Part shown: positions 6,124 through 55,612 of the stretch, piece by piece
Numbering within the stretch: the stretch's first letter is position 1
Layout of the letters: each line of letters begins with the position of its first letter
Origin: an uncultured Holophagales bacterium
Lineage (GTDB): Bacteria > Acidobacteriota > Thermoanaerobaculia > Multivoradales > UBA5704
DNA length: 64,000 bases
Assembly (NCBI GenBank): GCA_963842525.1
Contig: CAWJGT010000003.1
Location: forward strand, 192,001-256,000
Direction of reading: 5' to 3'
Made by a program: the position numbers and the translations under genes
The notes under the pieces: model-generated
Databases searched by the model: none
The model's input: only the letters and a program-made list of their open reading frames with translations
Told to the model about the DNA's origin: nothing

Positions 6124-6384
6124 GTGGGCCTGGAAAGCCGGAGCACCAGGGCAGCTCGGTTCAGGATCGGGCCGATGATACACCGGACCGCCTGGTAGAA
6201 GGCTTCCGCCAGACGACACGTGGCAGTGAAGCTGTGGCTGAAGCCCCTGGCTCTCCGCCCGTGGCGGAGCCGCAAAAGCAGTGGCGGAGAGCCAGCGCCA
6301 CCTGTCTTTGGCTCAGCGCCCATGGTCGGTCGGCCTCCGGGGCCGGGAGTGGTATAGCCTCTCACCCGCCGATCGCGCGACGCA

Positions 6385-7152
6385 GTGGAGTTTCGGAGGG
6401 CCTGGGACGCCCGCGGGCTCGGCGGGGAGGCGCGAGCCTGGGTGGATCGCTGCCGCGAGGCCCTCGAAGACCGGGACGGCCAGCCGCCGGACTTCGAGAC
6501 GCCGGCTGGTGCGCTGTGGTTGTTCATGGTGGTATCCCAAGCCAATCGATCTCTTCAGGCTGGTGCTTTGGCGGAGGCCGAAGCGGAGTACGACGCGATC
6601 CGGCTAACGCTCGAGAAATCCAGCAGCGAGCAGGCAAAGAGGCGCCTCGCCGTGGCCTACCATCAGCTCGGGAGGGTGGCCGAGGATCATGGAGATCTGC
6701 CGGGAGACGAGTCGTGGTACCGCAAGTCACTGGAGATCACAGAGGCGCTGGGGGATCAGCCTGCGATGTCTATGTCCTACCATCAACTCGGGAGCGTGGC
6801 CGAGGCTCGCGGGGATCTTGAGGGAGCCGAGTCGTGGTACCGCAAGTCCCTGGAGATCGAAGAGTCGCTGGGGGATCGACCCGGTATGGCCTTCACCTAT
6901 GGGCAACTCGGCCTTCTGGCGCTAGCCCGTGGGGACACGACAGGAGCCCTGGACTGGACGGTCCGTTGCGTGGCCCTGTTCCCCGAGTTCCCCCACCCGG
7001 CGACAGGCCCGGGGCCCCACAACCTCGCCCGACTCACGGCCAACTTAGGCATGCCGGCCCTCGAAGCGAGCTGGCAGCGCTGCACGGGCGGACCGTTGCC
7101 CGAGCCGGTATGGGCGTGGGTGGCGGCGCGATTGGAGAAAAGTTCCGCCTGA
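6385..7152 (+). CDS. TPR-containing protein, probably the C-terminal remnant of a larger TPR protein
   Basis: Three TPRs (YHQLGRVAE..SWYRKSLEI repeated). No clear RBS or start, and the upstream sequence looks degenerate. Confidence 0.6.
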   Translation: MEFRRAWDARGLGGEARAWVDRCREALEDRDGQPPDFETPAGALWLFMVVSQANRSLQAGALAEAEAEYDAIRLTLEKSSSEQAKRRLAVAYHQLGRVAEDHGDLPGDESWYRKSLEITEALGDQPAMSMSYHQLGSVAEARGDLEGAESWYRKSLEIEESLGDRPGMAFTYGQLGLLALARGDTTGALDWTVRCVALFPEFPHPATGPGPHNLARLTANLGMPALEASWQRCTGGPLPEPVWAWVAARLEKSSA

Positions 7153-7290
7153 AGCGCCACCAAAGTATTGACAGGCACGACCGGATCAATAGAATCGCGG
7201 TAAGCAGTCAGAAGATCCCGGTCGATCGCAGCTCGCAGGCTGGCCTTTTTCCGGCCAACGAGACGGCGAAACCTCCTGAATTGCCACGTC

Positions 7291-7388
7291 GCCAGCCCTG
7301 AAGGGGCGACAGCATAGAGCCTGGGGCGCAAGCCCCAGGAAAGGGAGATCCCCCACAAACCCAAGCCCTGAAAGGGCGGTAGCAGACC
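7291..7388. repeat. REP-like palindromic cluster, left flank of the transposase
   Basis: agccctgaaggggcgacagcatagagcctggggcgcaagccccagg...agccctgaaagggcggtagcagacc, an inverted copy of 7848-7944. Confidence 0.8.
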
Positions 7389-7841
7389 ATGGCCAGCAGC
7401 CTCACCAATCTCCTCTACCACATCGTCTTTTCCACCAAGGAACGCGTCCCTTTGATCCATGACGATCTTCGGGAATCCCTCTACGAATACGTCGGTGGAA
7501 TTCTTCGTGCCGAACGGAGCATCCTTCTTGAGATTGGCGGCGTGGCGGACCATGTCCACCTGCTGGCGAAGTTGAAGGCGGACCTCGCGGTCGCGTCGGC
7601 GGTGCGACTCATCAAGTCAAATTCCACCGGCTGGATCAACGACAACCGAAAGATCCAAGGACGATTCGAATGGCAGTCTGGATACTTCGCGGTCTCCGTG
7701 AGCGAGTCCCGTGTGGCGGAGGTCCGCCGGTATATACAGACGCAGCAGGAGCATCATGCGCGGATCTCATTTCGGGATGAATTGATCAAGTTGCTCAAGA
7801 AGCACCGCATTGCGTTTGATGAGAAATATTTTTTGGGTTGA
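7389..7841 (+). mobile_element. tnpA: IS200/IS605-family Y1 (HUH) transposase, RAYT-like
   Basis: YHIVFSTKER, the HUH motif DHVHLL, FEWQSGY and YIQTQQEHH. GC is lower than the surroundings. Confidence 0.93.
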
Positions 7842-35990: not shown

Positions 35991-37943
35991 ATGAATCGAC
36001 GGGCTCTCTCGATCGGTGTCCTGGTTTTCCTCTCATTCACAGCCGTGTCCCGGGCCGCGGATCCGGAAGAAGCCCGGCCGCTCCTGCGGTTCGTCGAGGG
36101 ACGGATCTGGAAGTCGGCCGACCTGCCCGGGACGGTCGCCGAGCGGGCGGTGAGCCTCGACCCCGGGGCGCTTCATGCTTCCCGGATGAGCCTGCCGTTG
36201 CTGGACGGCCAGACCTACGAGCTGGTGCGGACCGGCCTCGAGCAGCGGAGCGCGGGCGATTTCGCCTGGCGCGGCCAAGTGCTCGACCCGAGCGGAGCGG
36301 AGGAGCCCTTCGGCAGCGTCACGCTGACGATGAAGAACGGCGCGGTCCTCGGGCGGGTCTCGGTCCCCGGCGCCTCGTACCAGATCGCGCCGGCCGCCGG
36401 CGGCGGCTACCGTCTGGTCGAAGTCGACGATACCCAGCTCGATCCCTGCGCGGTGCACAGCTTCGGCGGCGGCTTCGCGCACGAGGTGAGCGAGATGGCC
36501 ACGGCGGTCCAGGTGCCGCTCCGCCCCGAGTTCGCGAAGCCACCCAAGGTCCCGCCGACGACGAACCTGCGGCTGCTGATCCTCTACACCGACCGCGGGG
36601 CGCAGCAGATCGGCGGCCTCAGCGAGCTCGAGAGATGGATCCGGAGCGACGTGGACCTGGGCAACGCCTCCTTCACGAACAGCCGCATCCCGGTCCAGGT
36701 CGAGCTCGTGGGGATGGTGAGGCTCAACTACATGGAGACCGGCGATCCCTATACCGACCTGACCTTCCTCCGGATGTCCAACGACGTCGACCATCTGCGC
36801 CGCGAGCACGGCGTCACCCACGTCATCCTGATCGTGGGACAGATGGACTTCGCCTGCGGCATCGGGGACCTCATGCGCAAGGACAAGTACCTGGACAACA
36901 GCCGGCCGTTCCAGGGCAGCGCTGTGATCCGGGCGAGCTGCCTCGGCGGTTTCACGCTGATCCATGAGATCGGGCACACGCTCGCCGCCGAGCACGACCC
37001 GGCTTCGGGCTCGCCGGTCCAGATCGCGCTCTTCCCCCATGCGTACGGCCATATCGTCGAGGACAACTTCCGCACCGTCATGGCCTATCCGAACTGCTTC
37101 AACTGCCCGACGGCGCCGCACTTCTCGAATCCGGCGGTCCGGTTCGACGGCGTTCCGACCGGCATTGCCGGCAAGCGGGACAACAGCAGGGTCATCGGCG
37201 TTACGCGGGCGAAGTTCACCGGGCCGCCGGACGAGGGCTGCGTGCCCGGCCCCATCACCATGTGCCTGGGCGAGGGCCGGTTCAAGGCCGAGGTCGAGTT
37301 CCTGGATCCGCACGTCTTCAAGCTCGGCTTTGCCAAGGTCCTGAACGGCACGGACACGACGGGCTACTTCGGCTTTGGCGATGCCGCCAGCCCTGCCGTC
37401 GCGCTCCGGGTGGCTCCCGACGGCAACCGCGTGCAGGTCGCGTATGGCCAGCTCACCGACTTCCCGTTCGAGCTCACCATCTCCGACCTGCAGACCGGCG
37501 GCGTGAGCCAGTACTACGATACGCAGAACGCCTGCGGCGGCTCGGATCAGAACGCCTTCGGCGGCCCGATGTTGGTGTCGGCGGCGGCGGTGACCGGCGA
37601 GGCCAAGGCTAAACCCGCTGCCTGCCCCACCACGGCGGAAACGCTCTGTCTCCACGGCCGCTTCCAGGTGACGGTGGATTGGAGGAATTCCACCGGCGAG
37701 GGGCGGGCCAACGTCTCGACGGTCTCCCGCCTGGCGGGCTCTTTCGACTTCGGCGACGGCGGGGACCCCGAGCTGGTGGTGAAGATCAGCCCCGTCGGTA
37801 AGAAGAATTTCGGCGTCTACTACGGTGCACTGAGCAACCAGCAGTACACCCTCACCATCACCGACATCCGTACCAGGGCGGTGAAGACCTACGAGAACCC
37901 CGCCGGCAACCACTGCGGCGGCAACGAGATTCCGGCTTTCTAG
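35991..37943 (+). CDS. Secreted metzincin (reprolysin/M12-like) metalloprotease with two C-terminal Cys-containing repeat domains
   Basis: HEIGHTLAAEHD, Met-turn RTVMAY and a signal peptide; repeats CLGEGRFKAEV and CLHGRFQVTV. Confidence 0.87.
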   Translation: MNRRALSIGVLVFLSFTAVSRAADPEEARPLLRFVEGRIWKSADLPGTVAERAVSLDPGALHASRMSLPLLDGQTYELVRTGLEQRSAGDFAWRGQVLDPSGAEEPFGSVTLTMKNGAVLGRVSVPGASYQIAPAAGGGYRLVEVDDTQLDPCAVHSFGGGFAHEVSEMATAVQVPLRPEFAKPPKVPPTTNLRLLILYTDRGAQQIGGLSELERWIRSDVDLGNASFTNSRIPVQVELVGMVRLNYMETGDPYTDLTFLRMSNDVDHLRREHGVTHVILIVGQMDFACGIGDLMRKDKYLDNSRPFQGSAVIRASCLGGFTLIHEIGHTLAAEHDPASGSPVQIALFPHAYGHIVEDNFRTVMAYPNCFNCPTAPHFSNPAVRFDGVPTGIAGKRDNSRVIGVTRAKFTGPPDEGCVPGPITMCLGEGRFKAEVEFLDPHVFKLGFAKVLNGTDTTGYFGFGDAASPAVALRVAPDGNRVQVAYGQLTDFPFELTISDLQTGGVSQYYDTQNACGGSDQNAFGGPMLVSAAAVTGEAKAKPAACPTTAETLCLHGRFQVTVDWRNSTGEGRANVSTVSRLAGSFDFGDGGDPELVVKISPVGKKNFGVYYGALSNQQYTLTITDIRTRAVKTYENPAGNHCGGNEIPAF

Positions 37944-38005: not shown

Positions 38006-39778
38006 CTACTGCCTCGCCTCCCCCGAGGGTGCCTGGCCAGGGGTGTAGATGCCGGTGACCGCCGAGTCCACATTGCCGAGCTCGTCGCGGACGGCCACGG
38101 CGATGCGGTGCTCCTCGGGACGGAGGAGGAGGGGCATCTTGTAGCCGGCGGTCTGGCCGAGGGCGGTCAGGATCTGGTCGTTCGGGACCCGGATGGGGAT
38201 GGCGATCTCCTGGACCGGCGAGCTGCGGCCCTTGCGGTCCCGCGCGCTCACGAAGACCGAGACCTTTCCTTCATGGTAGGCCCCCTGCGGCAGGAGGACC
38301 AGCTTCGCCAGCGGGAACTTGACCAGCATCTCCACCTGCATCTGCCCCTTCTTGTCCTTCGTCTCGCGCACCAGCTCGAGCTCCACCTCCAGCGGGTTCT
38401 TCCCCGGGTCGAGCAGCAGCGCGGCGAGCGTCCGGTCGGTCATGCGGTCCCGGCTGGTCCGTTCCCGCCGGCCGTCGCGGTGGCGCACCACCAGGTCGCG
38501 GTGGTTGCGCATGCCGACCTCGATCTTCCGGTTCCTGCCGTCCTTCCGGGCCTGCGGGACATAGCCCAGCGAGTAGTAGGAGTCGAAGTCGTCGCGCATA
38601 CGCGCCAGGATCGGGCCCGGGTTGATGGCGTCCACGGAAGACAGGCCGCCGGTGCCGTCGGCCAGCCGCTGCAGCGATGTGGTCAGGTCGAAGGATTCGT
38701 TCCTCTCGAGCTCCACGTTCCAGGCGAACATTCCGCCGGATTCGGCCGAGAGCCCGGCCAGCTCCTCGGTGGCGCCCAGGGTGTAGATGGTGACCCGGTT
38801 GCCGTTGGCGTGCTCGACCATCTGGCCGAAGAACCGGGTCAGGTCGTTCTGGAAGCTGTCGAGCGGCGAGGCGCCGGCCTGCCGGCTGACCTCGGGGAAC
38901 TTGTTCTGGTAGGCCTGGAAGAACGTTTCTCCCGGCCGCTGCGACAGGCCGCCGCCCACGTAGAGGAGGGCCTTGCGGCCGGGCAGGCCGGCCAGGGCAT
39001 CGGTGAAGCGGGTCAGGGCTTCCAGGGTGGCCCGCGTCTCGTTGTAGCGCTGCTGGGCGTAGAGGCGGATCCCCGCGTAGAGGCTCTCGGCGACCTTGAC
39101 GGAAGCATCCGACCCGTTGTCGGCGCCGCCGGACCCCGCGCCGGCGCTCTCGATGTCCAGGAGGAGCCGCCGCTTGTCCATGGCCCGCTCGACGCCGCGC
39201 GGCGCCCCCTTGGCCACCTCGTCGAGGGCCGCGAGCAGCGCTGCCCGGTCGTCCGTGAGCTCCTGCACCAGGTCGACGTTCGAGCCTTCGTAGGTCCCGA
39301 CCAGGGCGAGGTCGCCCGGCCGCAGCCGCGGGATCACTTCCTCGCGCAACGACTTGAGGAGCCGGTTGCGCGCCGGCGCCGTGAGGCTCAGGTTGTCGAA
39401 GAGCAGGGCCAGGTGGAGCCGCTGCTCGTCCTCGATCGGGGCCGGGGGCGCGGCTGGCGCTTGGGTCGGACCGATCGTTCCGATCGGGCCGGTCGGTCCG
39501 GCCACCGCGGGAGCGGCGGCCTCTCTGGCGACGGCGAAGAAGTTGGTGACCTCCACCGGCTTGCCGTTCTCGAGGACCTCGAAGTCGTTCTGGGTCAGGC
39601 CGGTGACGCGGTTCCCCTGCCGGTCGGTGACGAAGACCTCCAGGTTGACAACCTCGACGTCGATCGATTCGTAGAAGGTCTCGGGCCCGGTCGTCTCCGG
39701 CTCCTGGGCGCCGGCGCCGAAGGACACCAGGAAGGGGAAGAGGACGAGAATCAGGAGAGAGAACGGTTTGCACGGCAT
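38006..39778 (-). CDS. Acidobacterial VWA-domain protein
   Basis: Signal peptide, EVVNLEVFVTDRQGNRVTGLTQNDF, LPGRKALLY, LADGTGG and YYSLGY. Confidence 0.88.
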   Translation of the reverse strand: MPCKPFSLLILVLFPFLVSFGAGAQEPETTGPETFYESIDVEVVNLEVFVTDRQGNRVTGLTQNDFEVLENGKPVEVTNFFAVAREAAAPAVAGPTGPIGTIGPTQAPAAPPAPIEDEQRLHLALLFDNLSLTAPARNRLLKSLREEVIPRLRPGDLALVGTYEGSNVDLVQELTDDRAALLAALDEVAKGAPRGVERAMDKRRLLLDIESAGAGSGGADNGSDASVKVAESLYAGIRLYAQQRYNETRATLEALTRFTDALAGLPGRKALLYVGGGLSQRPGETFFQAYQNKFPEVSRQAGASPLDSFQNDLTRFFGQMVEHANGNRVTIYTLGATEELAGLSAESGGMFAWNVELERNESFDLTTSLQRLADGTGGLSSVDAINPGPILARMRDDFDSYYSLGYVPQARKDGRNRKIEVGMRNHRDLVVRHRDGRRERTSRDRMTDRTLAALLLDPGKNPLEVELELVRETKDKKGQMQVEMLVKFPLAKLVLLPQGAYHEGKVSVFVSARDRKGRSSPVQEIAIPIRVPNDQILTALGQTAGYKMPLLLRPEEHRIAVAVRDELGNVDSAVTGIYTPGQAPSGEARQ

Positions 39779-39955
39779 GATCGCGGCTCCCGGGATAAGA
39801 GTCATGGTAGCAGAAGCCCCCGCGGGGCGGCGGCCTGGTTCTGCTATAGTTCGGGCAAGGGTTTGCCAAGGTCGCCATATGCGCCTGCCGGAGCAGGCTG
39901 AGACACTCAGCGCCACCATGACGAGAGGCCTCCGCGGCTGCTCGGAGAGTCCCGG

Positions 39956-43448
<3,493 letters not shown>

Positions 43449-43624
43449 GGCCTCCCTCCAGCGCTCCCGGCCCAACCCTCTGCTATGCTTGTGTCTTCAA
43501 CAGAAGCAGTGTGTCGAGCCGCCTTCCGCAGGCGGGGGCGGACACAACCGGAGGGTGCCGGCAGGAAGAATATGTGCCGGCTGGCCTATCAGACCCGGGG
43601 GACCTCCCCCGCGCGAGGTGAGAC

Positions 43625-44140
43625 ATGGCTTTCAAGCTCAAGGACCTGATGATCAACCTCATTCCGCCGGGCGTCGGCAAGGGCAAGGAGGGCTGCCTGG
43701 AGGCCTCGGCGCCCGGCCAGTTCTGTGGCACTGCCTCGGCGGGCGCCGGGTTCTGCGGCACGGCTTCCGCGGGTGCCGCAGGCTTCTGCGGAACTGCCTC
43801 GGCGGGAGCCGGATTCTGCGGCACAGCCTCGGCGGGCGCGGGGTTCTGCGGTACGGCGTCGGCGGGGGCAGCGTTCTGCGGGACAGCCTCGGCGGGGGTG
43901 CAGTTCTGCGGCACGGCGTCGGCAGGCGCGGCGGCGGATCCGCGGGCTGCCCTGGAGGGCCTGGTCCTGCTCAAGCAGCAGCTCCTCCAGGCGCTGGCGC
44001 AGGTCGAGGAGCAGGAGAATGCGCTGGAGGCCGCTTGCCGCCCGCAGTCGCTGGAGGAGGCCGAGGAGCTCGAACGCCACCTGCGCGACGCTCTCGAGGA
44101 GCTCGAGCAGCACAAGCGGGAGCTCCGAAAGCCGAAATAG
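43625..44140 (+). CDS. Putative RiPP precursor A (leader, 7x FCGTASAG core, helical follower)
   Basis: GAGGTG RBS, MAFKLKDL leader, repeats with synonymous codon variation, and C-terminal GLVLLKQQLLQAL... Confidence 0.85.
   Translation: MAFKLKDLMINLIPPGVGKGKEGCLEASAPGQFCGTASAGAGFCGTASAGAAGFCGTASAGAGFCGTASAGAGFCGTASAGAAFCGTASAGVQFCGTASAGAAADPRAALEGLVLLKQQLLQALAQVEEQENALEAACRPQSLEEAEELERHLRDALEELEQHKRELRKPK
43721..43927 (+). repeat. Coding tandem repeat, 7 units of 30-33 bp encoding FCGTASAG
   Basis: ttctg(t/c)gg(n)ac(n)gc(n)tc(n)gc(n)gg(n), seven times, with third-position variation. Confidence 0.95.
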
Positions 44141-44168
44141 AACGGCCCGGCCTGCCACCATAGATGAG

Positions 44169-47100
44169 TTGACCACCGCCGGTGCTCTCCCTCGCTTCGA
44201 AATCGTCGGCCGCCTCGCGGCCGGGGATTCACCTCTATGCCGGGCGCAGGATCTGGCGAACGGGCGCCCGGCGCTCGTCCAGCTCCTGACGCCCGACCGG
44301 GAGGGCGTCGAAGCGCTGGCGCGTTTCCGGCGCGCGGCTCTCGCGGCCTCTTCGCTGGGCCACCCCCACATCGCTCGTCTCGAAGAGGTCGGCGCGGCCG
44401 GCGGCGATCTGTGCCTCGCCCTGGCACCCGCCGCGGGGGAGCCCGAGACCCTGGAGAGCCGCCTCGCGCACGGTTCCCTGGCCCGGGACGAGGCTGTCGG
44501 GCTGGCCGCGCAGATCGCCGCCGGCCTCGCCGAGGCGCACGCCGCCGGGATCGTCCATGGCGACCTGCAGCCCGACCTCGTTCTCTTGACGCCCGAGGGC
44601 GAAGCCAGGATCACCGCCTTCGGCCTCGGCGAGCTGGCCGACGCCGCGGCGCATCCCGGGGCCGCCGCCCCCTACCGGCCGCCCGAGAGGCTCCTCGGCG
44701 CTCCTCCCGACCCGCGGACCGATGTCTGGGCCCTCGGCATCATTCTCTACCGCATGCTGGCCGGGGTGCTCCCGTTCCGCGGTCTCGACGAGCGGGAGAG
44801 GGCCGAGGCCATGCTCCACCTGCGGCCCGACCCTTTGCCGAACCGTGCCTCCCTGCCCGCGGGGCTCGAGGCGGTCGTCCTGCGCGCCCTGGCGCGGCGG
44901 CCGGACGACCGCTATCCCGATGCCCGGACGATGGAGGCCGACCTGCGTGCGGTGGCAGCCGGCGCGGCGGTCGCTCCGCAGTCCGGCTCACGGCCCGATC
45001 TGCAGCCCGATTTACAGCCGACCTTGCTGGAGATCCCCGTGTCCCGCGCGCCGGAGCAGCGCCTGGTCCGGCAGCGGAGCTCCCCGGATCGCCCGGCGGA
45101 CCCGGCTCTCCACGGCGCGCCGTCCTACCGCCTGCTCGAAAAGATCGGCAGCGGCGGCACGGCCGTCGTCTATCGCGCCGAGGACACCCTGCTCGGCCGG
45201 TCCGTGGCGCTCAAGTTCCTCGCTCCCGAGCTGAGCCGCGATCCCGAGTCCAAGGCGCGCTTCCTGCGCGAGGCGCGGGCCGCCTCGGCGCTCGACCATC
45301 CCAATCTCTGTACGATCCACGAGGTGGGCGAGGACGAGGAGGGGCGGGTCTTCCTCGCCATGCCCTGCTACGAGGGAGAAACCCTGCGCGAGCGGCTCGA
45401 ACGGGGCCCGCTGCCGGTCGATCAGGCGCTCGCCATCGCGATCCAGGCGGGCCAGGGGCTCGCCCGCGCCCATCGCCAAGGCATCGTGCACCGCGACGTC
45501 AAGCCGGCAAACCTCATGCTCACCACGGACGGGGTGGTCAAGGTGCTCGACTTCGGCCTCGCCAAGCTGGACGGCGCCGCGCGCATCACCCGCGGGACCG
45601 CTGCCGGGGGCACCCTGGCCTACATGTCGCCGGAGCAGGCGCGGGGCGAGGAGGTGGACGCACGCTCCGACCTCTGGTCGCTCGGCGTGGTCCTCTATGA
45701 AATGGTGACCGGGAGCAAGCCCTTCTCCGGCGACACGCTGCAGGCGGTGCTCGCGGCGATCCAGCGGGCCGAGCCGGAGCCGGTCTCGCGCCTGCGGCCC
45801 GAGGCTCCGACGGAGCTCGACCGGATCCTCGCCCGCCTGCTGGCCAAGGACCCTGCCGGCCGCTATCCCGACGGGGAGAGCGCCGTCGCCGCCCTGCGGG
45901 CGCTGCGCGGTCCCGAGACGGTCTCGGGGCGCCGGCTCCAGGCGCCCGTGCCGCGGCGGCGGCGCTTGTGGCGGACCGCTATGCAAGCGGGAGCGGTGGC
46001 GGCCTTCGTAACGGCCGCCGGCCTGCTGCTTTGGAGCTTCGGCCCGCGGAAGCAGGGCGGCCCGGTGCTGGCGGCGACCTTCACGCCGCTCACGCATGGA
46101 GAGGGCCGCGAGACGTTCCCCAGCCTGGCGCCCGGAGGCGAGTTCTTCGTCTATGTGGCCCCCGACGGAGGGGATCTGGACATCTTCTGGCAGCGGATGG
46201 GCGGCGACAATCCGCTCAACCTCACCGAGGGCTCGCCCTGGGACGACACCCAGCCCGCCGTCTCGCCGGACGGCCAGCAGATCGCCTTCCGCTCCGAGCG
46301 GGAGGGAGGCGGCCTCTTCCTCATGGGGGCCACGGGCGAGTCCGTCCGCCGTCTCGCCGACGCCTGCTTCAACCCCGCCTGGTCGCCGAATGGCCAGGAG
46401 ATCGCCTGCGCGACCGAGGGGATCGCCCATCCCCGTGGGCGGCTCGCGCGCAGCCGGATCTGGCGCATCGAGGTGGCCACCGGGACGCGGCGGCTCGTGG
46501 ACACAGAGGACGGCGTGCAGCCGAGCTGGTCGCCCCGGGGCCGGCGGATCGCCTTCTGGGGGCTCTCCGGCGATTCGGCGCGGCGGGCACTCTGGACCGT
46601 TGCGGTCGACGATGCGGAGGAGGCGGAGGCCAGGGGCGAGCCGGTCCTGGTCCTCGACGACGGAGCCCTCAACTGGAGCCCGGTCTGGTCGCCCGACGGC
46701 GTCTGGCTCTACTTCGCCAGCGACCGAGGCGGCAGCATGAATCTCTGGCGGGTGGCGATCGACGAGGAATCGGGCCGCGTCCGGGGAGAGCCGGAGGCGG
46801 TGATGGCCCCGAACACCGCGAGCGTCCTGCCCAGCCTGACGCGGGACGGCCGCCGCATCGCTTTTGCCGGCGAGTCGGAGAGGTCGCAGCTCGTGCGGGT
46901 GGCTTTCGACCCGCAGAGCCGGCAGGCGGCCGGACCGCTCCAGCCGGTGAGCCAGTGGACCCGCGCGGTCCGCTCGGGCGACGTCTCGCCGGACGGGCGG
47001 TGGATCGTCTTCGACATCTCTGCGCCGCAGGAGGACCTCTTCCTCGTCCGCGTGGACGGAGGCGGCCTGCGCCAGCTCACCGACGACGCCTGGCGCGACC

Positions 47101-47708
47101 GCATGCCCCGCTGGTCGCCCGACGGGCAACGCATCCTCTTCTACTCCGACCGCGGCGGCAAGTACGAGGCGTGGGCCCTTCACGTGGACGGCGGCGAGGC
47201 CGAGCAGCTCACGCGCATCCCCGGCCGGCAGCTCTTCGATCCGATCTGGTCTCCGGACGGCCGGCGGCTGATCTGCGCGCTGGAGTTCCGCGGTCCGTAT
47301 GTGATCGACCTCGCGGAGGCGGGCTCCGCCGCAAGCGAGCCGCGGCCCCTCCTCCCCCTGGACGAGGCGGACGATTTCGCGGTCAGCTCCTGGTCGGCCG
47401 ACGGCCGGCGCCTGGCCGGCTTCGACCGCGCGTCGCGGATCGTCCTCTTCTCCTTCGCCACCGGCCGCCGCGAGGTGCTGCCGGAGACGGGTGAGGAGGT
47501 GGCCTGGCTGCCGGACGGCCGGTCGCTGGCCTTCCTGCGTGACGGGGAGGTCTGGATGCTGGAGGTCGCGACGCGTCGGACGACCCGGGTGCTGGCGCCG
47601 CCCCGGGGCTCCGCCTTCAAGCGGCTCGGCGTGGCCCCCGACGGCCGGTCGCTCTATCTCGTGCAGGTGAGCGAGCAGGGGGACATCGGATTGCTGACGC
47701 TGCCGTAG
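44169..47708 (+). CDS. Receptor Ser/Thr kinase 2: pseudokinase + kinase + TM + TolB-like beta-propeller
   Basis: TTG start. Domain 1 has [15 protein letters not shown]. Domain 2 has [21 protein letters not shown] and DFG. A TM and PD40 repeats follow. Confidence 0.9.
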
Positions 47709-47762
47709 GCTATACTTTCCTCGCGATTCATTTCTTCTGTTGGCTTTCGAGGAGGTGGAGCT

Positions 47763-48038
47763 TTGCGCTTCCAGATCCGTGACCTCACGGCCGCTGTCTT
47801 GCCGGCCGACGGCTTGCGCCTGTTTCCCTGCACCTGCCGGGTGTCGGCAGATCCGCCCCCGGAACAGCCCCAGGAAGCGCCAAGACCGCGGCCCCGTCCG
47901 CAGCCGGGTCGCGTTCCGCCCTGCCGGGGCTCCAACGCACCCACCGACGACTGTCCGCACCCCGGGGACGACTCCGAGAGGCAGGCTGGGCTCGCGCTGC
48001 TGAAGCGCCAGCTCCGCGCGGCTCTTGAGGCGCGGTAG
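47763..48038 (+). CDS. Putative RiPP precursor B (91 aa)
   Basis: GGAGGT RBS with a TTG start, MRFQIRDL leader, a core with four Cys (PCTCRVS, PPCRGS, DDC), and follower GLALLKRQLRAAL. Confidence 0.8.
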   Translation: MRFQIRDLTAAVLPADGLRLFPCTCRVSADPPPEQPQEAPRPRPRPQPGRVPPCRGSNAPTDDCPHPGDDSERQAGLALLKRQLRAALEAR

Positions 48039-48083
48039 CCGCCCGCGCCGGAGCGCTCTACTTCCGTCCGGGACACTGGCTCA

Positions 48084-50693
48084 TTGATCGGCAGCACCTT
48101 CTCCCGCTACGAGATCCTCGACGCGCTCGGCAGCGGGGGGATGGGAGTCGTCTGGCTGGCCGAGGACACCCGCCTCGGCCGCAAGGTCGCCCTCAAGCTG
48201 CTGGCGCCCGAGCTGACGCGCGACCCGGCGGCCAAGGCCCGCTTCCTCCAGGAGGCCCAGGCCGCGTCGTCGCTCGACCACCCCAACATCTGCACGATCT
48301 ACGACGTCGGCGAGACCGAGAACTGCCAGGTCTACCTCGCCATGCCCTCCTACGAGGGCGAGACGCTCAAGGCGCGGATCGCGCGCGGCCCCCTCTCCGT
48401 CGACGGCGCCGTGGACATCGCCCTGCAGGTCGCCAAGGGCCTGGCCAAGGCGCACCGGCAGGGGATCGTGCACTGCGACGTCAAGCCGGCGAACCTGATG
48501 ATCACCGCCGACGGGGTGGTCAAGATCCTCGATTTCGGGGTTGCCCGGCTGGCCGGGCCTGCGGGCAGCGGCACGGAGTCCCATCCCACGGGCGCCGTGG
48601 GCACGCCGGCCTACATGGCGCCCGAGCAGGTGCGCGGCGAGGAGGTGGACCCGCGCACCGACCTCTGGTCCCTGGGCGTAGTCCTCTACGAGATGCTGGC
48701 CGGCCGCCGGCCGTTCACCGGCGAGCGCGACCTGATGGTGCTCCATGCGATCCTCACGTCCCGGCCGGCACCGCTCTCCCGCGCCTGTCCCGAAGCACCG
48801 CCGGAGCTGGAGCGGATCGTCGTCCGCCTGCTGGCGCGCGATCCGGAGAGCCGTTACCCCGACGCGGAGAGCTTGCTCGCCGACCTGCGCCGCCTGACGG
48901 GGCCGGACACCGGCGCCTTTCCTGCGCCGTCGTGGCTGCCGCGGGGCCGCACCCTGCGGCGTGCGGCCGGGCTGGCCCTCGCCCTCGCGGTGGTGCTCGC
49001 CGGCGTCTATCTCTCCCTCTGGGGGGAGATCACGCCTCCTCGTGCCGCGCCCGAAATGGGCGTCATCCGCCTGACCAACCAGCCGGGGGTCGAGTCGTTC
49101 CCCAGCCTCTCTCCGCAGGGCGATTTCTTCGTCTACGCCCGGTCGATCGAGGGCGATACGAACATCTACCGGCAACGCGTCGCCGCGGAAGCCATTCCGG
49201 TCGACCTGACCGCGGGCTCCCCGTACGACGACACGCAGCCCGCCTGGTCGCCCGACGGCAAGCGGATCGCCTTCCGCTCGGACCGCGCCGGCGGCGGCAT
49301 CTTTCTTATGGGGCCGAACGGTGAGGAGGTGAGCCGCCTCACCGGCTTCGGCTACAACCCGGCCTGGTCTCCGGACGGCCGGGAGATCCTGTTCACCTCC
49401 GAGCCGGTCGACGATCCGGGCGGACGGATCTCCCGCAGCCACATCTGGCGCGTCGAGGTGGCGACCGGGCTCAAACGGCTCCTCGTCGAGCGCGACGGCA
49501 TGCAGCCGAGCTGGTCGCCCAGTGGAAAGCGCATCGCGTACTGGAGCCTCCGTCCCGGGAGCACGGGCCGGGTCCTCTGGACCATTTCAGCTTCCGGCGG
49601 CGAGCCCGTGGAAGCTATTGCGGACGACTTCATCAACTGGAGCCCGGTCTGGTCGCCCGATGGGCGCTGGCTCTATTTCGCCAGCGACCGCAGCGGCAGC
49701 ATGAACCTCTGGCGGATCCGGATCGACGAGCGGAGCGGCCAGGTGCAGGGGAAGCCTGAAGCGATCACCACCCCTTCGCCTTGGAGCGGTCCACTGAGCA
49801 TCAGCCAGGACGGCCGGCGGATCCTCTTCGCGGTCCGCAACACGGCGCGGAGCCTGGAACGGATCGCCCTGGACCCGGCGGGTCCCCGCGTCGTGGGACG
49901 GCCGCAGCCTGTCGTCCGGAAAGCGCTTCCGATCGCGTTCGGCAAGGCTTCTCCGGACGGCCAGTGGATCGTCTTCAGCACCCTGCCCCCACACGAGGAG
50001 CTGTTCGTCGTCCGGCCGGACGGCAGCGGCCTCCGCCAGCTCACCCAGGACGCCTATCGCAACCGCGGGCCAGGTTGGCTGCCCGACGGCCGGATCGTCT
50101 TCTTCTCGGACCGGGGGGGCCGCTTCGGCGCCTGGGCAGTCCGGCGCGACGGCACCGGCCGCCCGGAGCCGGTCGCCGCCAACCGCGGCGAGCCGATCCA
50201 CAATCCTCTCGCCTCTCCGGACGGCCTCTGGCTCGCCTGTACTGTCAACTTCCTCAATGCGGCCCTCATCGACCTTGCGCTGCCAATGGAGCAGCGGATC
50301 CCGGAGTCGCTCCCCTCGCCGATCCCCGGCACGACCTTCTTCCCCAGCTCGTGGTCTCCCGACAGCGGACAGCTCCTCGGAGAGGTCCAGGGCCGCGGCA
50401 TCTTCACCTTCTCGCTCGCCACCCGCGAGTTCCAGCGGCTGGCCGGCCGCGGCACGCTGCCGGCCTGGACGAGCCAGGGACAGAGGATCCTGTTCACGGA
50501 CGAGGGCAGGATCTTCGCGCTCGACGTGCCCACAGGAGGACGGGGTGCGGCAGGACGCCGGCGCGAGCTGTACGCGCCGCCGGAGTCGTCGACCTTGACG
50601 GCCTTCGACGTGAGCCCGGACGATCGGACCCTCTACGTCGTGCAGAAGCCGGCCGAGGGAGATGTCTGGATGCTCACGTTCGGCGGATTTTAA
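48084..50693 (+). CDS. Receptor Ser/Thr kinase 3: single non-RD kinase + TM + TolB-like beta-propeller
   Basis: GSGGMGVVW, VALK, HCDVKPAN and DFG; TM AAGLALALAVVLAGVYLSLW; PD40 repeats. Confidence 0.92.
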   Translation: MIGSTFSRYEILDALGSGGMGVVWLAEDTRLGRKVALKLLAPELTRDPAAKARFLQEAQAASSLDHPNICTIYDVGETENCQVYLAMPSYEGETLKARIARGPLSVDGAVDIALQVAKGLAKAHRQGIVHCDVKPANLMITADGVVKILDFGVARLAGPAGSGTESHPTGAVGTPAYMAPEQVRGEEVDPRTDLWSLGVVLYEMLAGRRPFTGERDLMVLHAILTSRPAPLSRACPEAPPELERIVVRLLARDPESRYPDAESLLADLRRLTGPDTGAFPAPSWLPRGRTLRRAAGLALALAVVLAGVYLSLWGEITPPRAAPEMGVIRLTNQPGVESFPSLSPQGDFFVYARSIEGDTNIYRQRVAAEAIPVDLTAGSPYDDTQPAWSPDGKRIAFRSDRAGGGIFLMGPNGEEVSRLTGFGYNPAWSPDGREILFTSEPVDDPGGRISRSHIWRVEVATGLKRLLVERDGMQPSWSPSGKRIAYWSLRPGSTGRVLWTISASGGEPVEAIADDFINWSPVWSPDGRWLYFASDRSGSMNLWRIRIDERSGQVQGKPEAITTPSPWSGPLSISQDGRRILFAVRNTARSLERIALDPAGPRVVGRPQPVVRKALPIAFGKASPDGQWIVFSTLPPHEELFVVRPDGSGLRQLTQDAYRNRGPGWLPDGRIVFFSDRGGRFGAWAVRRDGTGRPEPVAANRGEPIHNPLASPDGLWLACTVNFLNAALIDLALPMEQRIPESLPSPIPGTTFFPSSWSPDSGQLLGEVQGRGIFTFSLATREFQRLAGRGTLPAWTSQGQRILFTDEGRIFALDVPTGGRGAAGRRRELYAPPESSTLTAFDVSPDDRTLYVVQKPAEGDVWMLTFGGF

Positions 50694-50820
50694 TATATAA
50701 TACTTCATGGTAACCGCGGCATCGACCTCGTTTCCGTCCCCTTCGCCCGGGTGGGGCCTGGGACGAGGCCCGTGCGCTTCCCACGAGGACATCAGTGACA
50801 AGGAGACAAAGGAGGACACA

Positions 50821-50997
50821 ATGAGCTTCAAGTCGAGAGATCTATCGGTGCAGGTCGGCCCGGACGAGGGTATCGACACACCCTGCTGCCCGTGCCGGAG
50901 CACCGGGGACGAGTGGCTGGGCAGCCCGGGCGGCTCCCAGTTGGACGACCTGCGGCAGCGGCTTCGTGCTGCTGTGCAAGCCGAGTCCCGGCAGTAA
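50821..50997 (+). CDS. Putative RiPP precursor C (58 aa)
   Basis: AAGGAGG RBS with ATG at 50821: MSFKSRDLSVQVGPDEGIDTPCCPCRSTGDEWLGSPGGSQLDDLRQRLRAAVQAESRQ. Confidence 0.82.
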   Translation: MSFKSRDLSVQVGPDEGIDTPCCPCRSTGDEWLGSPGGSQLDDLRQRLRAAVQAESRQ

Positions 50998-51032
50998 CGA
51001 TCGGCGGAGCTCTTCTGGAGATCTAGCGGGCG

Positions 51033-52232
51033 GTGGATATCCTGACGCGCGACTTCCGGGCAAATCCCCGCTTCGAGCTTGTTTTGTTTGACCGCCTTCC
51101 ACGAGAGGAGCGCCGGGCGCTGGCGGACCTGGCGCGAGAGCCTGGTTTCTATGGCGTGTTGCGGCCCGGTGACGGCAGCAGCGGCAGCGGTCTGGGCCTC
51201 AAGTCGGTGGACCGCGACACGGCGCTCCTCTTCCTCACCCTGCGTGAGCCGGGCCCCCTTCCTTCCTACGTCTGCTCCCAACTGGGCGCGGCGGCCTTGC
51301 GGACCGTCGTCGGCCGGCTGGTCGCCGACGGCGTGCTGGAGGTGGAGAGCGGGGGGGCCTTCCTGTCCGGCGCGGCGGCCTTCGAGCTCCTTGCCGAGGG
51401 CGCGGCGCGGTCCGCGACCTCTGGCGGGAGCGGCCGGCTCGCGGAGCTGTCTCTCGCGGCGCTCCGCTACGGCCAGGCGCTCGCCGTGGACGATCCGCTG
51501 CTCCTCTCCTGGCGCCTCTACTGCTTCCACCGCCGGCCCCTGACCCCGGCCTGGAAGCGGCTCCTGCCCGCGGCCGAGGCGGTCGAGGCGCACCTGGGGA
51601 TTGCGCCTGGGGGAGGGGCCCGCCGGCTTCTCGACCGGAGCTGGTCGCGGACGGCCCCGGTCGAGGGGTGGCTGAGCTGGCGCGCGCGCGCCCGGCGGGC
51701 CGCCGGTCCCGCCGCATCCTCCGCTGCGGAGGGACCCACCTGGAAGCTCTATGTCAGCCCGGTGCCCGAGGCCCTGGCCGCGTCCTTCGGGGAGATTCTG
51801 GAGGCCCTCACCGCGGCGCGTGCCGATCAGTTCAAGGTCGGCGCGGATGCGGCCGGGCTGCTCCGCCCGGACAAGATCGTCGCCTATTTCCCGAGCTTCG
51901 AGCGTCTCGCCGCGGCGGCGGAGACCCTCGCCGGGCGGCTCGCGGGAGCCCCGGCCCACGGCGTTCCCTTCACCTCCGAGATTGGCGGCGGAGGCCTCCT
52001 CTCCTGGGGTGTGGACCCGCCGCGGTCGCAGAGGACCTGGAGCGAGGGGGAGAGCTGGCGGCTCTGGCTGACCCACCGGCTGGCGCGGGCGCTGCTGGCC
52101 GCCCGCGTCCAGTCCGCCGATACAAGCGTTGATCCCGCCGCCGAGCCCTGGCGCTTCGCCCTGGAGCGCGTGCGCCTGGAAGGGGTCGACACCGCGACCT
52201 GGACGCCGGGTGCGCTCCTCTGGAAGGGCTGA
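51033..52232 (+). CDS. HopA1/LanY-like phosphoSer/Thr lyase with an N-terminal RRE-like (winged-helix) domain
   Basis: WKLYVSP...FKV...RPDKIVAYF...GVPFT...SWGVDPP...ESWR resembles HopA1-family and LanL-type lyase motifs. The N-terminus ends in RLVADGVLE. Confidence 0.7.
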   Translation: MDILTRDFRANPRFELVLFDRLPREERRALADLAREPGFYGVLRPGDGSSGSGLGLKSVDRDTALLFLTLREPGPLPSYVCSQLGAAALRTVVGRLVADGVLEVESGGAFLSGAAAFELLAEGAARSATSGGSGRLAELSLAALRYGQALAVDDPLLLSWRLYCFHRRPLTPAWKRLLPAAEAVEAHLGIAPGGGARRLLDRSWSRTAPVEGWLSWRARARRAAGPAASSAAEGPTWKLYVSPVPEALAASFGEILEALTAARADQFKVGADAAGLLRPDKIVAYFPSFERLAAAAETLAGRLAGAPAHGVPFTSEIGGGGLLSWGVDPPRSQRTWSEGESWRLWLTHRLARALLAARVQSADTSVDPAAEPWRFALERVRLEGVDTATWTPGALLWKG

Positions 52233-52238
52233 TCCACG

Positions 52239-54606
52239 ATGGCCATCACCGACCCCCTGGTGCTGTCTCCGGACCTGCTCCTGGTGCCGGTTGTCGACCT
52301 GCCGGAGGAGGTGCGCGCCCGCTTCGAGCATGACGAAGGGGACGTCGCGGTCACCCATCCGCGCTCGCGGACGCCCTCCCGCATCCTCGACGCGCGCTCG
52401 GCCGAGCTGCTGGAGCAGTTCCGTACGCCGCGGACGATCGTCGAGGCGGTGATCCACTTCAGCCGCGCGCGCGAGGCCGACCCCGAATCCACGCTGGAGG
52501 AGGCCTTCCCGCTTCTGCAGCGTCTCCTCGATTCCGGGTTCCTGGTCCCCGAGGGGAGCGACGAGGCGGCGGGCGTCCATCCCGCGCTGGCGCCGGGGGA
52601 GGAGGTCGCCGGGTATGAGGTTTTCGAGTGCGTGCAGGGGCTGGAGGACACCGAGCTCTACCAGGTGCGAAGGCCGGCCGGGCTCGCGGCCCTCAAGATC
52701 GAGCGCCCGGCCGCGGCAGGCCGGCGCGCGGAGCTCTTTGCCCGGGAGGAGGCGATCCTGGCGCACCTCGGTGGGGAAGGGACCCCCCGCCTCCTCGCGG
52801 CCGGAGAGCTCGACGGCCGGCGTTGGATCGTGCTCGAGTGGTGCCTCGGCGTCGACGCCGCAACCGCCGCCCTGGAGCTGCGCCAGCGCGGCGAGGCCGG
52901 CCGGCCCGGGTTGCTGGCGCTCTGCCGGGGGATCGCCGCGGCCTATGCGCGGCTCCACGAGAGGGGGGTGGTCCACGGCGACGTCCACCCGCGCAATGTC
53001 CTGGTGGGACGGGACGGCGCCGTGCGGCTGCTCGACTTCGGGTACTCGCTCTGGGACGGCGGCGCCGCGGAGATCGCCCGGCCCGGGCGCGCGGGCGTGG
53101 CCTTCTTCTACGAGCCCGAGTATGCCGCGGCGGTGCGGGCGGACCGGCCGTACCCGGCAGCCTCCACGGCTGGGGAGCAGCACGCGGTGGCGGCTCTCCT
53201 CTACCTGCTTCTGACCGGTGCCCACTACCGCGACTTCTCCCTCGAACGGCAGGAGATGCAGCGGCAGATCGCCGAAGAGCCGCCTCTCCACTTCGCGGAG
53301 CGCGGCGCGGAGCCCTGGCCGGAGGTGGAGGCGGTCCTGGCGCGCGCCCTGCGCAAGGTGCCCGAGGAGCGGTTCTCTTCCCTGGCCGATCTGGCCTCCG
53401 CGCTCGCGGAGGTGGAGGTCCTGCCCGTCCCTGTCCGGGGTCCGGCGTCCGAAAGCCGCGAGGCCGAAGACCTGCTCGACCGCTTCCTGGAGCGCGCGGG
53501 TGAGGGGGGCTCGCTCTTCGTCGCCGGGCTCCCCAGGGCGCCGACCGCGTCGGTCATGTATGGGGCCGCGGGGGTCGCCTGTGCGGTCTACCGGATCGCG
53601 CTGTCCCGGGAGGACGCGTCTCTCCTCGCCCTGGCTGACATCTGGGCGGAGAGGGCTGCTGCAGCTTCCGGCTCGGAGGATGCCTTCTACAACCCGGAGA
53701 TCGGGATCGACTCCGGGACCGTGGGGGAGAATTCCGTCTACCACACCGCTGCCGGGGTCCACGCGGTCCGCGCCCTGGTCGCCCATGCCCTCGGCGTGTC
53801 CGGCATTCAGGCTGCGGCCGTCCGGGCCTTCCTGGCCGAAGCGCGGCGGCCCTGTCCCCAGATCGACCTCGGCTTCGGCCGTTCGGGCTTCCTCCTGGCC
53901 GGCTCCCTGCTGCGCGACACGCTCCGGCCGGACCCTGCCGGCCCGCGCGCCGAGCTGACCGCCTGGGGCGAGGAGGTCCTGCGCGGCCTGTGGCGCGAGC
54001 TCGACCGGCTGCCTCCGGTGGCGGACCCGCGGCGGCCGGCCGGCCTGGGGGTGGCGCACGGCTGGGCCGGCCACGTCTATGCCGCGCTCCGCTGGTGCCG
54101 CTCGGCGGACACGCCCTTGCCCGCCCGTCTCGAAGAGCGGCTCGCCGGCCTTGCGGAGCAGGCGCGTCCCTGGGGGAGAGGGTTGCGCTGGCGCTGGCCC
54201 GGCGCGCCGGACGGGTCCCTCAGCATGCCCGGCTGGTGCAACGGCAGCGCGGGGTTTCGTCTTCCTCGGCACCCTCGCCGCGGAGATGCTGGGGGAGCCC
54301 CGCTACCGCCAGCTCGCCGAAGGGGCGGCCTGGAACGCCTGGGAGGCATCCGACCGCAACTGGAGCCTCTGCTGCGGCCTGGCCGGCCGCGCCTGGTCCC
54401 TCCTCCATCTCGCGCGGCACGGCGGCGGCCCGGAGTGGCTGGAGCGCGCCCGCCTCCTCGCCAACCGCGCGGCCCGTGAGGTCGCCCGCGGCGTCGAATC
54501 GCCCGACAGCCTCTATAAGGGAGAACCCGGCATCGCCGCCCTGGCCGCCGACCTCGCCCGCCCGGAGGCGGCAGCCATGCCCTTCTTCGAGGAGGAGGGG
54601 TGGTGA
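52239..54606 (+). CDS. RRE-like + Ser/Thr kinase + LanC-like lanthionine cyclase fusion (frameshift near 54255)
   Basis: Kinase motifs ALKIE, HGDVHPRN and DFG; LanC motifs MYGAAG, GVAHGWAG, GWCNGSAG, SLCCGLAG and SLYKGEPG. Confidence 0.85.
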
Positions 54607-54613
54607 CCGAGGG

Positions 54614-55612
54614 CTAAGACGGCGGCCGGGAGCCGGGCGGGGCGACGGCGAGGATCTTCTCGATCTTCTTCGGGTCATCCGGCAGCAGGCCCGAGGCGGG
54701 AAGGCGGGGGACCAGCCGGGCCCAGCGCTCCTCGCGGGCGAAGACGTCGCGGAAGATGGCAAGGGCCTTGTCCTCCTGACCGGCCACAAAGAGCGCTACC
54801 GCCTGCCAGAAGGGGAGCTCGGCGATCTCCGGGGCGAGCTCGCTGGCTTTCGTATAGTGCCGCAGCGCCGCCGGGAAGTCGTTTTTCGCCACCGCCTCAT
54901 CCCCCTGGTTCATCTCCTCGTAGGCGCGGTGCAGCGCAAGCAGCCGCCGCAGCTCCACCAGCGGCTGCGGGTTGTCGTCCACCCGCAGGTCGACCAGCTT
55001 GTCGCGCCACGGCTCGCCGGTCGGCTGGGCGCGGACGATGAGCAGCGCCGCGCTCTGCCGGCCGCGGATGTCGCCGCCCTCGGCCTCGGCGGCGTCCAGC
55101 GCCGCCAGCATGCGGTCGGCGAGGTCCCCCTTGGCGCTCTCGAAGGCGCGGGCCATGGCCGGCCAGACGGTCGGCTTGTCCATCAGGTTCGCCTGCACCG
55201 AGTACGCGGCCCCGGTCTGGTGCCCGGCGGCGTGGATGCACTTGGGGCCGGTCCAGGCCGCGACCCGCCCCTGGCGGTCCACCATGGCGACCTGCCGCAC
55301 GTCCTTCTCGGGGTCTTTGGCGAGCAGGGCGTCCAGCGCCTCCTGCGCCGATTTCCCCTCTTTCATCAGCTTCAGGCCGAGCGGCCCGTAGTCGATGCGG
55401 ACGAACGACTGCGTGGCGACCGCCCCCACGCCCGCCTCGGCCCACGGCACGGTCGGCCCGACCTGGAACCAGTGGCTCTGCACCGCGACGCCGAAGTCGC
55501 CCGTCGCCGGGTCGCGGGCCACGATCGAGTAGGTGTGCGCCAGGGGATCACGCGCCAGCAGGGGGAGCGGCAGGAAGGCGGCGGCCAGACAGAGGACGGT
55601 GAGACGCGTCAT
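54614..55612 (-). CDS. DUF1028 (Ntn-hydrolase-like) secreted protein with a C-terminal TPR
   Basis: Signal peptide then TYSIVARDPATGDFGVAVQS, GAVATQS, GGDIRGRQSAAL and DLRVDD. Confidence 0.88.
   Translation of the reverse strand: MTRLTVLCLAAAFLPLPLLARDPLAHTYSIVARDPATGDFGVAVQSHWFQVGPTVPWAEAGVGAVATQSFVRIDYGPLGLKLMKEGKSAQEALDALLAKDPEKDVRQVAMVDRQGRVAAWTGPKCIHAAGHQTGAAYSVQANLMDKPTVWPAMARAFESAKGDLADRMLAALDAAEAEGGDIRGRQSAALLIVRAQPTGEPWRDKLVDLRVDDNPQPLVELRRLLALHRAYEEMNQGDEAVAKNDFPAALRHYTKASELAPEIAELPFWQAVALFVAGQEDKALAIFRDVFAREERWARLVPRLPASGLLPDDPKKIEKILAVAPPGSRPPS

Follow-up and report, generated by a model that had tools for sequence, protein, structure and literature searches.

Two described groups of lanthipeptide synthetases come closest to the enzymes reported here. 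Class IV LanL enzymes (VenL, SgbL and CuvL) unite three activities on one polypeptide, those of a Ser/Thr kinase, of an OspF/HopA1-fold phospho-Ser/Thr lyase and of a zinc LanC cyclase, with a zinc site of the C/C/H type. Class V/Vb systems (LanK/LanY, for example LxmKY) instead have a stand-alone HopA1-like lyase, LanY, and a separate kinase of the APH type, LanK, and class Vb employs a LanC cyclase according to a passage of PMC11186320. Lanthipeptide precursors (LanA) consist of an N-terminal leader followed by a C-terminal core, and the LanC-like domain of class III enzymes has no zinc ligands, both as set out in passages of PMC7268733; a passage of PMC10604976 adds that none of the class II–V enzymes has an identifiable recognition element (RRE) of the kind found in enzymes for peptides that are made by ribosomes and modified after translation (RiPPs). 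Here we report the genes, motifs, folds and gene linkage of a cassette from an uncultured Holophagales bacterium of the phylum Acidobacteriota (assembly GCA_963842525.1, contig CAWJGT010000003.1, positions 192,001–256,000; this stretch of 64,000 nucleotides is called the window, and positions are counted from its first letter). It holds three small peptide genes, A, B and C, interleaved with genes for receptor-type Ser/Thr kinases and followed by genes for a lyase-like protein and a kinase-LanC protein. Our reading, to which we give a probability of about 70%, is that A, B and C are three-part precursors, each with a 12-residue N-terminal tag, a C-x3-[S/T] core and an amphipathic helix, which the neighboring enzyme pair makes into ring peptides that act with the receptor kinases.

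Results

Peptides A, B and C are genuine coding genes of a conserved family. The initial annotation of the window had named three open reading frames (ORFs) by their terminal sequences and credited each with a good ribosome-binding site, and we recover all three ORFs and sites as described. Peptide A (43625–44140, plus strand, ATG start, 171 aa) comprises the leader MAFKLKDLMINL (43625–43660), a core made of CLEAS and seven FCGTASAG units (43721–43927), the follower helix LVLLKQQLLQAL (43961–43996) and a second helix with a basic tail (43997–44137). Peptide B (47763–48038, plus strand, TTG start, 91 aa) has the leader MRFQIRDLTAAV, a Pro-rich core containing CTCRVSA, CRGS and CPHPG, and the follower LALLKRQLRAAL (47991–48026). 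Peptide C (50821–50997, plus strand, ATG start, 58 aa) is nested in a longer ORF (50707–50997) and joins the leader MSFKSRDLSVQV to a core with CCPCRST and the follower LDDLRQRLRAAV (50941–50976). Each start is preceded by a Shine-Dalgarno-like, purine-rich site (GAGGTGAGAC-ATG for A, GGAGGTGGAGCT-TTG for B and AAGGAGGACACA-ATG for C). GC content at the third codon position (GC3) is 0.86, 0.82 and 0.81 in A, B and C, and the order GC3 > GC1 > GC2 in each is that of the adjoining long genes. The seven FCGTASAG units of A are encoded by a 30-nt tandem array (43702–43929), and among these copies the third position varies in seven of the eight codons, the first and second in none. This synonymous-only variation shows selection on the reading frame of A, and together with the coding-type GC3 and the Shine-Dalgarno sites it marks the three as real genes.

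Database searches with the peptides themselves returned little. Neither B nor C has a match in Pfam-A or NCBIfam at E ≤ 1, A has in these databases a sub-threshold sigma-70 match alone (16.8 bits against 42.9), and an ESM Atlas search with A gave no usable match. Scanning 40400–55000 for promoters and terminators, we found terminator-like sites at chance level and one promoter-like site, which overlaps the start of C. A loose N-terminal pattern is matched by 50 ORFs in the bacterium's own 9.95-Mb genome, and only A, B and C among them, judged by eye, add a Cys core and the C-terminal motif. One might take B and C for chance ORFs, given their small size, the TTG start of B and the many open frames to be found in GC-rich DNA. 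We give that idea almost no credence: B and C have coding-type composition and Shine-Dalgarno sites, and the same ends recur in positional homologues across many genomes, a conservation that rules a chance origin out.

The two ends of the peptides are conserved around hypervariable cores. Among 54 nonredundant peptides collected from the window, from 20-kb loci of other genomes and from database matches, the leader motif MxF[KR]x[KR]DL is present in 53 (consensus x-F-[KR]-x-[KR]-D-L-[MI]-[IV]-x-[VL]) and the follower motif LxxL[KR]xQLxxxL in 52 (consensus L-x-x-L-[KR]-Q-Q-L-x-x-x-L), which bears out the initial description of a conserved head and a conserved C-terminal helix enclosing a hypervariable Cys/Ser/Thr core. 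Peptides of a short type, which end a few residues past the follower, make up 18 of the 52 that we tabulated; the other 34 are of a long type, in which the peptide runs on past the follower into another conserved helix and a tail of basic character, the two-helix tail spanning about 60 residues. Peptide A is of the long type, which is also present in other classes of the phylum, and B and C are of the short type. Peptide A has 47 database homologues, six of them 78–86% identical to it with a differing number of repeats. The peptides had been described as unannotated, and this stands in part: homologues of A are already called as genes in public gene sets, where they carry almost only the name "hypothetical protein."

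The long tail also identifies the family on its own. When a profile of the tail alone was searched against 1.84 billion cluster representatives, each standing for a cluster at 50% identity, 987 proteins passed a threshold of E ≤ 1e-3, and 268 of them also passed E ≤ 1e-10. In the best 150 matches, proteins of 64–254 aa, the match ends no more than about 17 residues from the C-terminus. Among these top matches 143 are new representatives, of which 123 begin with Met and 93 start with the leader motif. The presence of the leader in proteins found by the tail alone shows that the two peptide ends are linked. Two weak matches to the tail profile lie elsewhere in the bacterium's own genome (E 0.008 and 0.009).

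Two of the compared loci have unusual long-type genes. Locus L058, from another family of the class, has two tandem long-type precursors (6295–6882 and 6892–7599), one with six near-identical CSDCTQQAFSICGTTPGPG units, and the leader of both reads MPK[IV][KR][DE]L, without the Phe. In locus L026 a long-type precursor (1282–2073) reads through into the next gene, to a length of 263 aa, and the kinase that follows is split between two frames (2070–2402 and 2404–2886); both features are probably due to another assembly indel, apart from the interruption in the window that we discuss below.

Core Cys residues are followed by Ser or Thr at a fixed spacing. The cores are hypervariable and often repetitive, with units such as FCGTASAG, CPTASA, CGPATR, CTIATIDP, CxxCTGTT, CPNPSKPQ, CPDDSHG and CTPSPP. 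In the 54-peptide set, 271/340 core Cys have Ser or Thr at position +4, as against 26–126 at each other offset from −6 to +6 and a mean of 52 (maximum 73) in 1000 trials with shuffled cores; for the 143 proteins of the independent set the count is 654/1151. Both tallies are inflated by repeats within a peptide and by kinship between sequences, but the rule turns up in repeat types that are not related to one another. The initial annotation had placed Ser or Thr two to four residues after Cys; the order is right, and the true spacing is sharper, C-x3-[S/T]. Peptide B, which has no such unit, represents a deviant subtype, C-T-C-x-x-S-A, that occupies the same position in two relatives (CTCGPAS in L026, 4709–4933; CTCAQSA in L054, 12811–13098).

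Precursor genes are linked with the enzyme pair across the phylum. The kinase-LanC gene follows the lyase gene in all 20 of the 20-kb loci that we fetched, which come from uncultured Thermoanaerobaculia and other Acidobacteriota. Small ORFs with both end motifs stand just upstream of the lyase homologue in 16/19 foreign loci; peptide C itself ends 35 nt before the lyase gene, and relatives have positional homologues of it there. The proposed tie of the peptides to lyase and LanC genes is thus found well beyond the window, and like LanA genes, C and the precursors of the relatives are small genes beside putative lanthionine-forming enzymes. When 21 loci were compared, only the lyase, kinase-LanC and kinase-PD40 families were common to more than four. 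The 399-aa lyase protein is present in 29/61 related genomes, and in an even sample of the phylum its profile matches 7/301 genomes. Four of these seven lie outside the order of the window, two in the same class and two in other classes, and all four have long-type precursors directly upstream of the enzyme pair, with leaders reading MPKFKIRDL, MSFEFNDL or MPKIKDL.

The first enzyme of the pair has the fold of a stand-alone phospho-Ser/Thr lyase. Its gene (51033–52232, plus strand) encodes 399 aa, comprising a probable RRE-like domain (residues ~1–110) and a lyase fold of the HopA1/LanY/OspF kind (residues ~131–394). The protein has no match in Pfam or NCBIfam, Pfam HopA1 being absent at E ≤ 0.1, and the lyase-family profile found among PDB sequences only a chance-level GGDEF match (E 0.13). 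In its AlphaFold (AF2) model (mean predicted local distance difference test score, pLDDT, 84.9), the lyase fold is structurally closest to LxmY (9dk1_B, Z 13.2 over 221 aligned residues), followed by the CuvL lyase domain (Z 13.0) and HopA1 (4rsw, Z 12.8), and it also matches class III lyase domains and SpvC. Residues 1–110 of the model resemble the leader-binding parts of MibB (Z 8.0), TigE, TbtB and NisB at Z 6–8 and are probably an RRE-like domain. The family is large: this protein has at least 1534 homologues among 8000 candidates scored, to be set beside the 268 cluster representatives matched by the peptide tail. Among the 120 lyase homologues listed, those with a name are called "hypothetical protein," except one whose name begins "putative intracel."

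The second enzyme joins an RRE to a kinase and a LanC domain. Its gene (52239–54606, plus strand) encodes an RRE (residues 1–111), a Hanks-type kinase (HGDVHPRN, DFG) and a LanC domain (HG, WCNG, LCCG), the last with a frame shift at ~54236–54245. The model of the N-terminal domain (pLDDT 88.5) has the winged helix and three-strand sheet of a PqqD-like RRE, with best fold matches to TigE (Z 11.1), TbiB1 with leader (Z 10.5), lasso B1 (Z 9.7) and PqqD (Z 9.2), so that of the two RRE-like domains that had been proposed for the downstream enzymes, the one on the kinase-LanC protein scores well above the Z 6–8 of the one on the lyase protein. Against Pfam, the protein matches Pkinase (4.7e-11) more strongly than APH (1e-5), and LANC_like at 1.6e-5. 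All 20 homologues have the HG and WCxG motifs of the LanC part, and C[CH]G was matched separately in 18 of the 20 (for L034 and L038 the search hit the first motif instead); the kinase loop is kept in 5/5 homologues and DFG in 4/5. From these motifs, a zinc site is predicted with Cys ligands in WCNG and LCCG, in which the third ligand would be Cys and not His.

One extra base at a GGGGTTT run in the window (~54236–54245) shifts the frame of the LanC part between WCNGSAGF and VFLG. Taken at face value, the frameshift would mean that the system is decaying here and that the three peptides are not cyclized in this organism. A single base splits the LanC frame, and all 20 compared homologues have an uninterrupted LanC part. 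Against this, the rest of the kinase-LanC gene and peptides A, B and C keep coding-type composition and their conserved motifs. Indels in homopolymers are a frequent assembly error, which in our judgement further reduces the case for decay, and we regard a real frameshift as quite improbable.

The enzyme pair resembles class IV and class V systems, yet it fails defining features of each class compared. With class IV LanL it shares the three activities expected from its domains and, going by the motifs HG, WCNG and LCCG, zinc ligands in LanC; it differs in that the lyase is a separate protein, the predicted zinc site is C/C/C, an N-terminal RRE-like domain stands on both proteins and the precursors have a C-terminal follower. 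The best NCBIfam match of the kinase-LanC protein, lanthi_synth_IV (NF038150), scores 93 bits against a cut-off of 650 and covers profile positions 239–731 only. The lyase-like protein, which also stands alone, resembles the lyase of class V/Vb in fold, LxmY being the best structural match to it, and has no sequence-level match in the PDB and none to Pfam HopA1 at E ≤ 0.1; a LanC domain is present as in class Vb. Here, however, the kinase is of the Pkinase type and fused to an RRE and LanC, and RRE-like domains are present; no further gene family is conserved across the loci, in a comparison that included no search aimed at LanD or LanX. Unlike class III LanKC enzymes, the LanC part has conserved putative zinc ligands. 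The conserved helix after the core in 52/54 precursors departs from the leader-core layout that a passage of PMC7268733 gives for LanA, as the initial annotation implied in calling a follower helix unusual for lanthipeptides. The combination of kinase, split lyase and LanC on two proteins therefore fits none of classes III, IV and V/Vb, nor, by one review passage, class VI, a name that denotes there the streptococcal LanKCb enzymes (PMC12328550). Other RRE-dependent RiPP enzymes (lasso B1, TigE, NisB/MibB, PqqD) have the same N-terminal domain fold, and among the matches listed none is a kinase-LanC enzyme or a HopA1-type lyase that bears an RRE.

Each peptide gene directly follows a gene for a receptor Ser/Thr kinase (STK), an arrangement that the initial annotation had missed. 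All three kinases have a C-terminal stretch of PD40 (TolB-like) repeats and lie on the plus strand: copy 1 at 40707–43448 (Pkinase 5.1e-48, PD40 1.9e-37; start codon uncertain), copy 2 at 44172–47708 (Pkinase, in two stretches, 4.8e-70, PD40 1.7e-44; a TTG start is placed tentatively at ~44172) and copy 3 at 48084–50693 (Pkinase 9.6e-51, PD40 1.9e-44). In the PD40 kinases the propeller repeats span about 550 residues, and a hydrophobic segment is present as well; in copy 3 this segment, of membrane type, was recognized by eye. Peptides A, B and C begin 176, 54 and 127 nt past the stop codon of the preceding kinase gene. Over all loci, 36/48 STK-PD40 gene ends have a family peptide within 450 nt on the same strand, and in ten loci chosen by the kinase alone, away from any lyase gene, 9/18 gene ends do. 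Peptides linked to such remote kinases keep C-x3-T (CTTQT, CTTLT, CTLVT), and the kinase-peptide link persists at loci without the lyase/LanC pair. The kinase subfamily was found in 31/61 relatives; lyase and kinase subfamily occur together in 24 of the 61 genomes, neither in 25, the lyase only in five and the kinase only in seven, a descriptive tally because the relatives are not independent. The peptide is a hub: across the phylum it accompanies the enzyme pair, and within this bacterial family it accompanies receptor kinases. This pairing of precursor genes with receptor kinase genes suggests that the peptides probably act together with the kinases.

The kinases of the window are not all alike. 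Copy 2 has an additional kinase-like domain ahead of its STK domain (~44172–45100), which by eye has HGDLQPD and AFG in place of the HRD..N loop and DFG of active kinases and probably represents a pseudokinase. Relatives again have double-kinase genes at the position of copy 2. The genome has four genes of the subfamily, three of them within the cluster, and the fourth (contig C13, 31104–33974) has no family peptide adjoining it.

The genes flanking the cassette show no such linkage. Upstream, a 957-aa ORF on the minus strand (38006–40879) has coding-type composition and no Pfam match, and adjoining it on the plus strand is the gene for a 650-aa protein (35991–37943) with weak matches to reprolysin-type (M12B) metallopeptidases; neither gene is conserved beside the cassette in relatives. 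Downstream, a gene for a DUF1028 protein with C-terminal TPR (54614–55612, minus strand) is convergent to the kinase-LanC gene. Beyond it lie genes for a PAS-GAF-GGDEF protein, a DASS-type transporter and an extracytoplasmic function (ECF) sigma/anti-sigma pair, all of them, like the DUF1028 gene, ordinary neighbors that are not conserved with the cassette.

Discussion

From synteny we infer that the enzyme pair acts on the peptides, and the sequences of enzymes and cores suggest by what chemistry. Ser and Thr residues of the core would first receive phosphate from the kinase domain of the RRE-kinase-LanC protein. Elimination of that phosphate by the separate RRE-lyase protein would leave dehydroalanine or dehydrobutyrine (Dha/Dhb), and the zinc LanC domain would then add the Cys located four residues upstream, closing a thioether ring. 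The product would be a string of small rings of reversed polarity, with Cys on the N-terminal side, and one enzyme pair would serve several differing precursors of the same genome. A precedent for such breadth is ProcM, a promiscuous class II LanM that uses a different dehydratase, has a CCG three-Cys zinc site and serves many precursors. Its substrates, the prochlorosins, combine shared recognition parts with hypervariable cores; their N-terminal leader is long, and a follower is absent. The likeness to the present system lies in the three-Cys zinc site and in one synthetase for many precursors with hypervariable cores.

How the conserved ends are used may be answered in more than one way. 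Leader and follower could plausibly each be read by one of the two putative RREs. A rival account accepts the modification and lets only one end dock, leaving the other for export, cleavage, oligomerization or contact with the receptor kinase; the N-terminal tag might bind an RRE as a strand, for example, or the follower might, as an amphipathic helix, occupy a groove of the kinase or lyase in the way of class III/IV leaders. The Leu spacing of the follower, L..L...L..AL, is of the kind that passages of PMC8341899 and PMC10604976 describe for the leader recognition helices of classes III and IV, and the two-helix tail of the long type is larger than a docking motif needs. Peptides that stand behind kinase genes away from the enzyme pair are also easier to understand if one end has another use. 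Two RRE-like domains beside two conserved ends, both kept in nearly all members, speak for docking at each end, and docking at one end only seems to us quite possible without being the favored account. A complex prediction that combined peptide C with the RREs of the lyase protein and of the kinase-LanC protein scored 0.33, compared with 0.49 for a control in which chain 1 was replaced, a result that weighs neither for nor against binding.

The kinase genes invite a different account altogether, in which the main role of the peptides lies in the cytoplasm, where they would serve the STK-PD40 kinases as partners or substrates (regulators, adaptors or phospho-acceptors), and the link to lyase and LanC is secondary. 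The short distances from kinase gene to peptide gene, the frequency of family peptides at kinase gene ends, the modules far from any lyase/LanC pair and the Ser/Thr-rich cores are all in keeping with it. The loci outside the order are not: their precursors stand directly upstream of the lyase/LanC pair, three of the four have no PD40 or STK-type match in the fetched stretch at the thresholds listed, and the fourth (L057) has only a weak STK-type match, which falls inside the kinase-LanC gene itself. A plain kinase substrate, moreover, has no need of the C-x3-[S/T] rule, which ties Cys to Ser/Thr, nor does this account explain the predicted peptide-docking domains on the lyase and LanC proteins. 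We consider it distinctly unlikely.

Several observations weigh against maturation of A, B and C into ring peptides by the neighboring enzyme pair. The lyase protein resembles known lyases in fold only, with no sequence-level match to solved structures and none to Pfam HopA1 (E ≤ 0.1); the Z scores of 6–8 for its RRE-like domain fall in a range that the tool rates as common, and the N-terminal domains of the two enzymes align weakly with each other, over their full length (hhalign E 0.0013, probability 18.5%). The one-base frameshift in the LanC part reflects either an assembly error or recent decay that has left the local enzyme defective. The Cys+4 counts overstate independence, owing to internal repeats and kin sequences, and the C-x3-[S/T] unit is missing from B and from three others of the 52 tabulated peptides. 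Long-type peptides in L048 and L049 follow kinase genes although the lyase/LanC pair is absent from the surrounding 10 kb, and in three genomes (77–89% complete) that have a match to the tail profile the lyase was not found. Finally, the cluster lacks a conserved protease or exporter across the 21 loci compared.

If the peptides do act with the kinases, several roles may be considered. The most far-reaching is that each kinase and its peptide are a matched receptor and ligand: a shared split synthetase would mature different ring peptides, and for each of them the kinase encoded just upstream would act as sensor, its PD40 propellers detecting the peptide outside the membrane. This would amount to multi-channel, lanthipeptide-based signaling, in which the fixed ends serve maturation by way of the two RREs and the variable C-x3-S/T core confers specificity. 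Agr and Com systems, in which peptide pheromone genes lie next to receptor kinase genes, offer an analogy, with a variable small peptide, a membrane sensor kinase and several divergent copies per genome. The kinases of Agr and Com are histidine kinases, whereas those here are of the Hanks type with PD40, and no exporter or protease is linked. We put this signaling model forward as a speculation that is rather unlikely as it stands; the kinases may instead carry out a priming phosphorylation or be engaged in cytoplasmic regulation.

A search of the published literature found no description of the cassette or of its precursors, a search that did not extend to supplementary tables, which may list such clusters, for instance among the unclassified ones of the pipeline of PMC7268733. 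The clusters that a passage of PMC13083261 describes from Acidobacteriota belong to classes III and II in their ordinary form. If the proposed chemistry is true, the cassette would represent a lanthipeptide route outside the classes compared, with a split lyase, both enzymes guided by RREs and precursors recognizable at both ends. Its product would likewise be unusual, a tandem array of up to about 15 small rings in which Cys lies upstream of its partner. The pairing with receptor kinases provides a testable lead to the roles of ribosomal peptides in uncultured soil Acidobacteriota.

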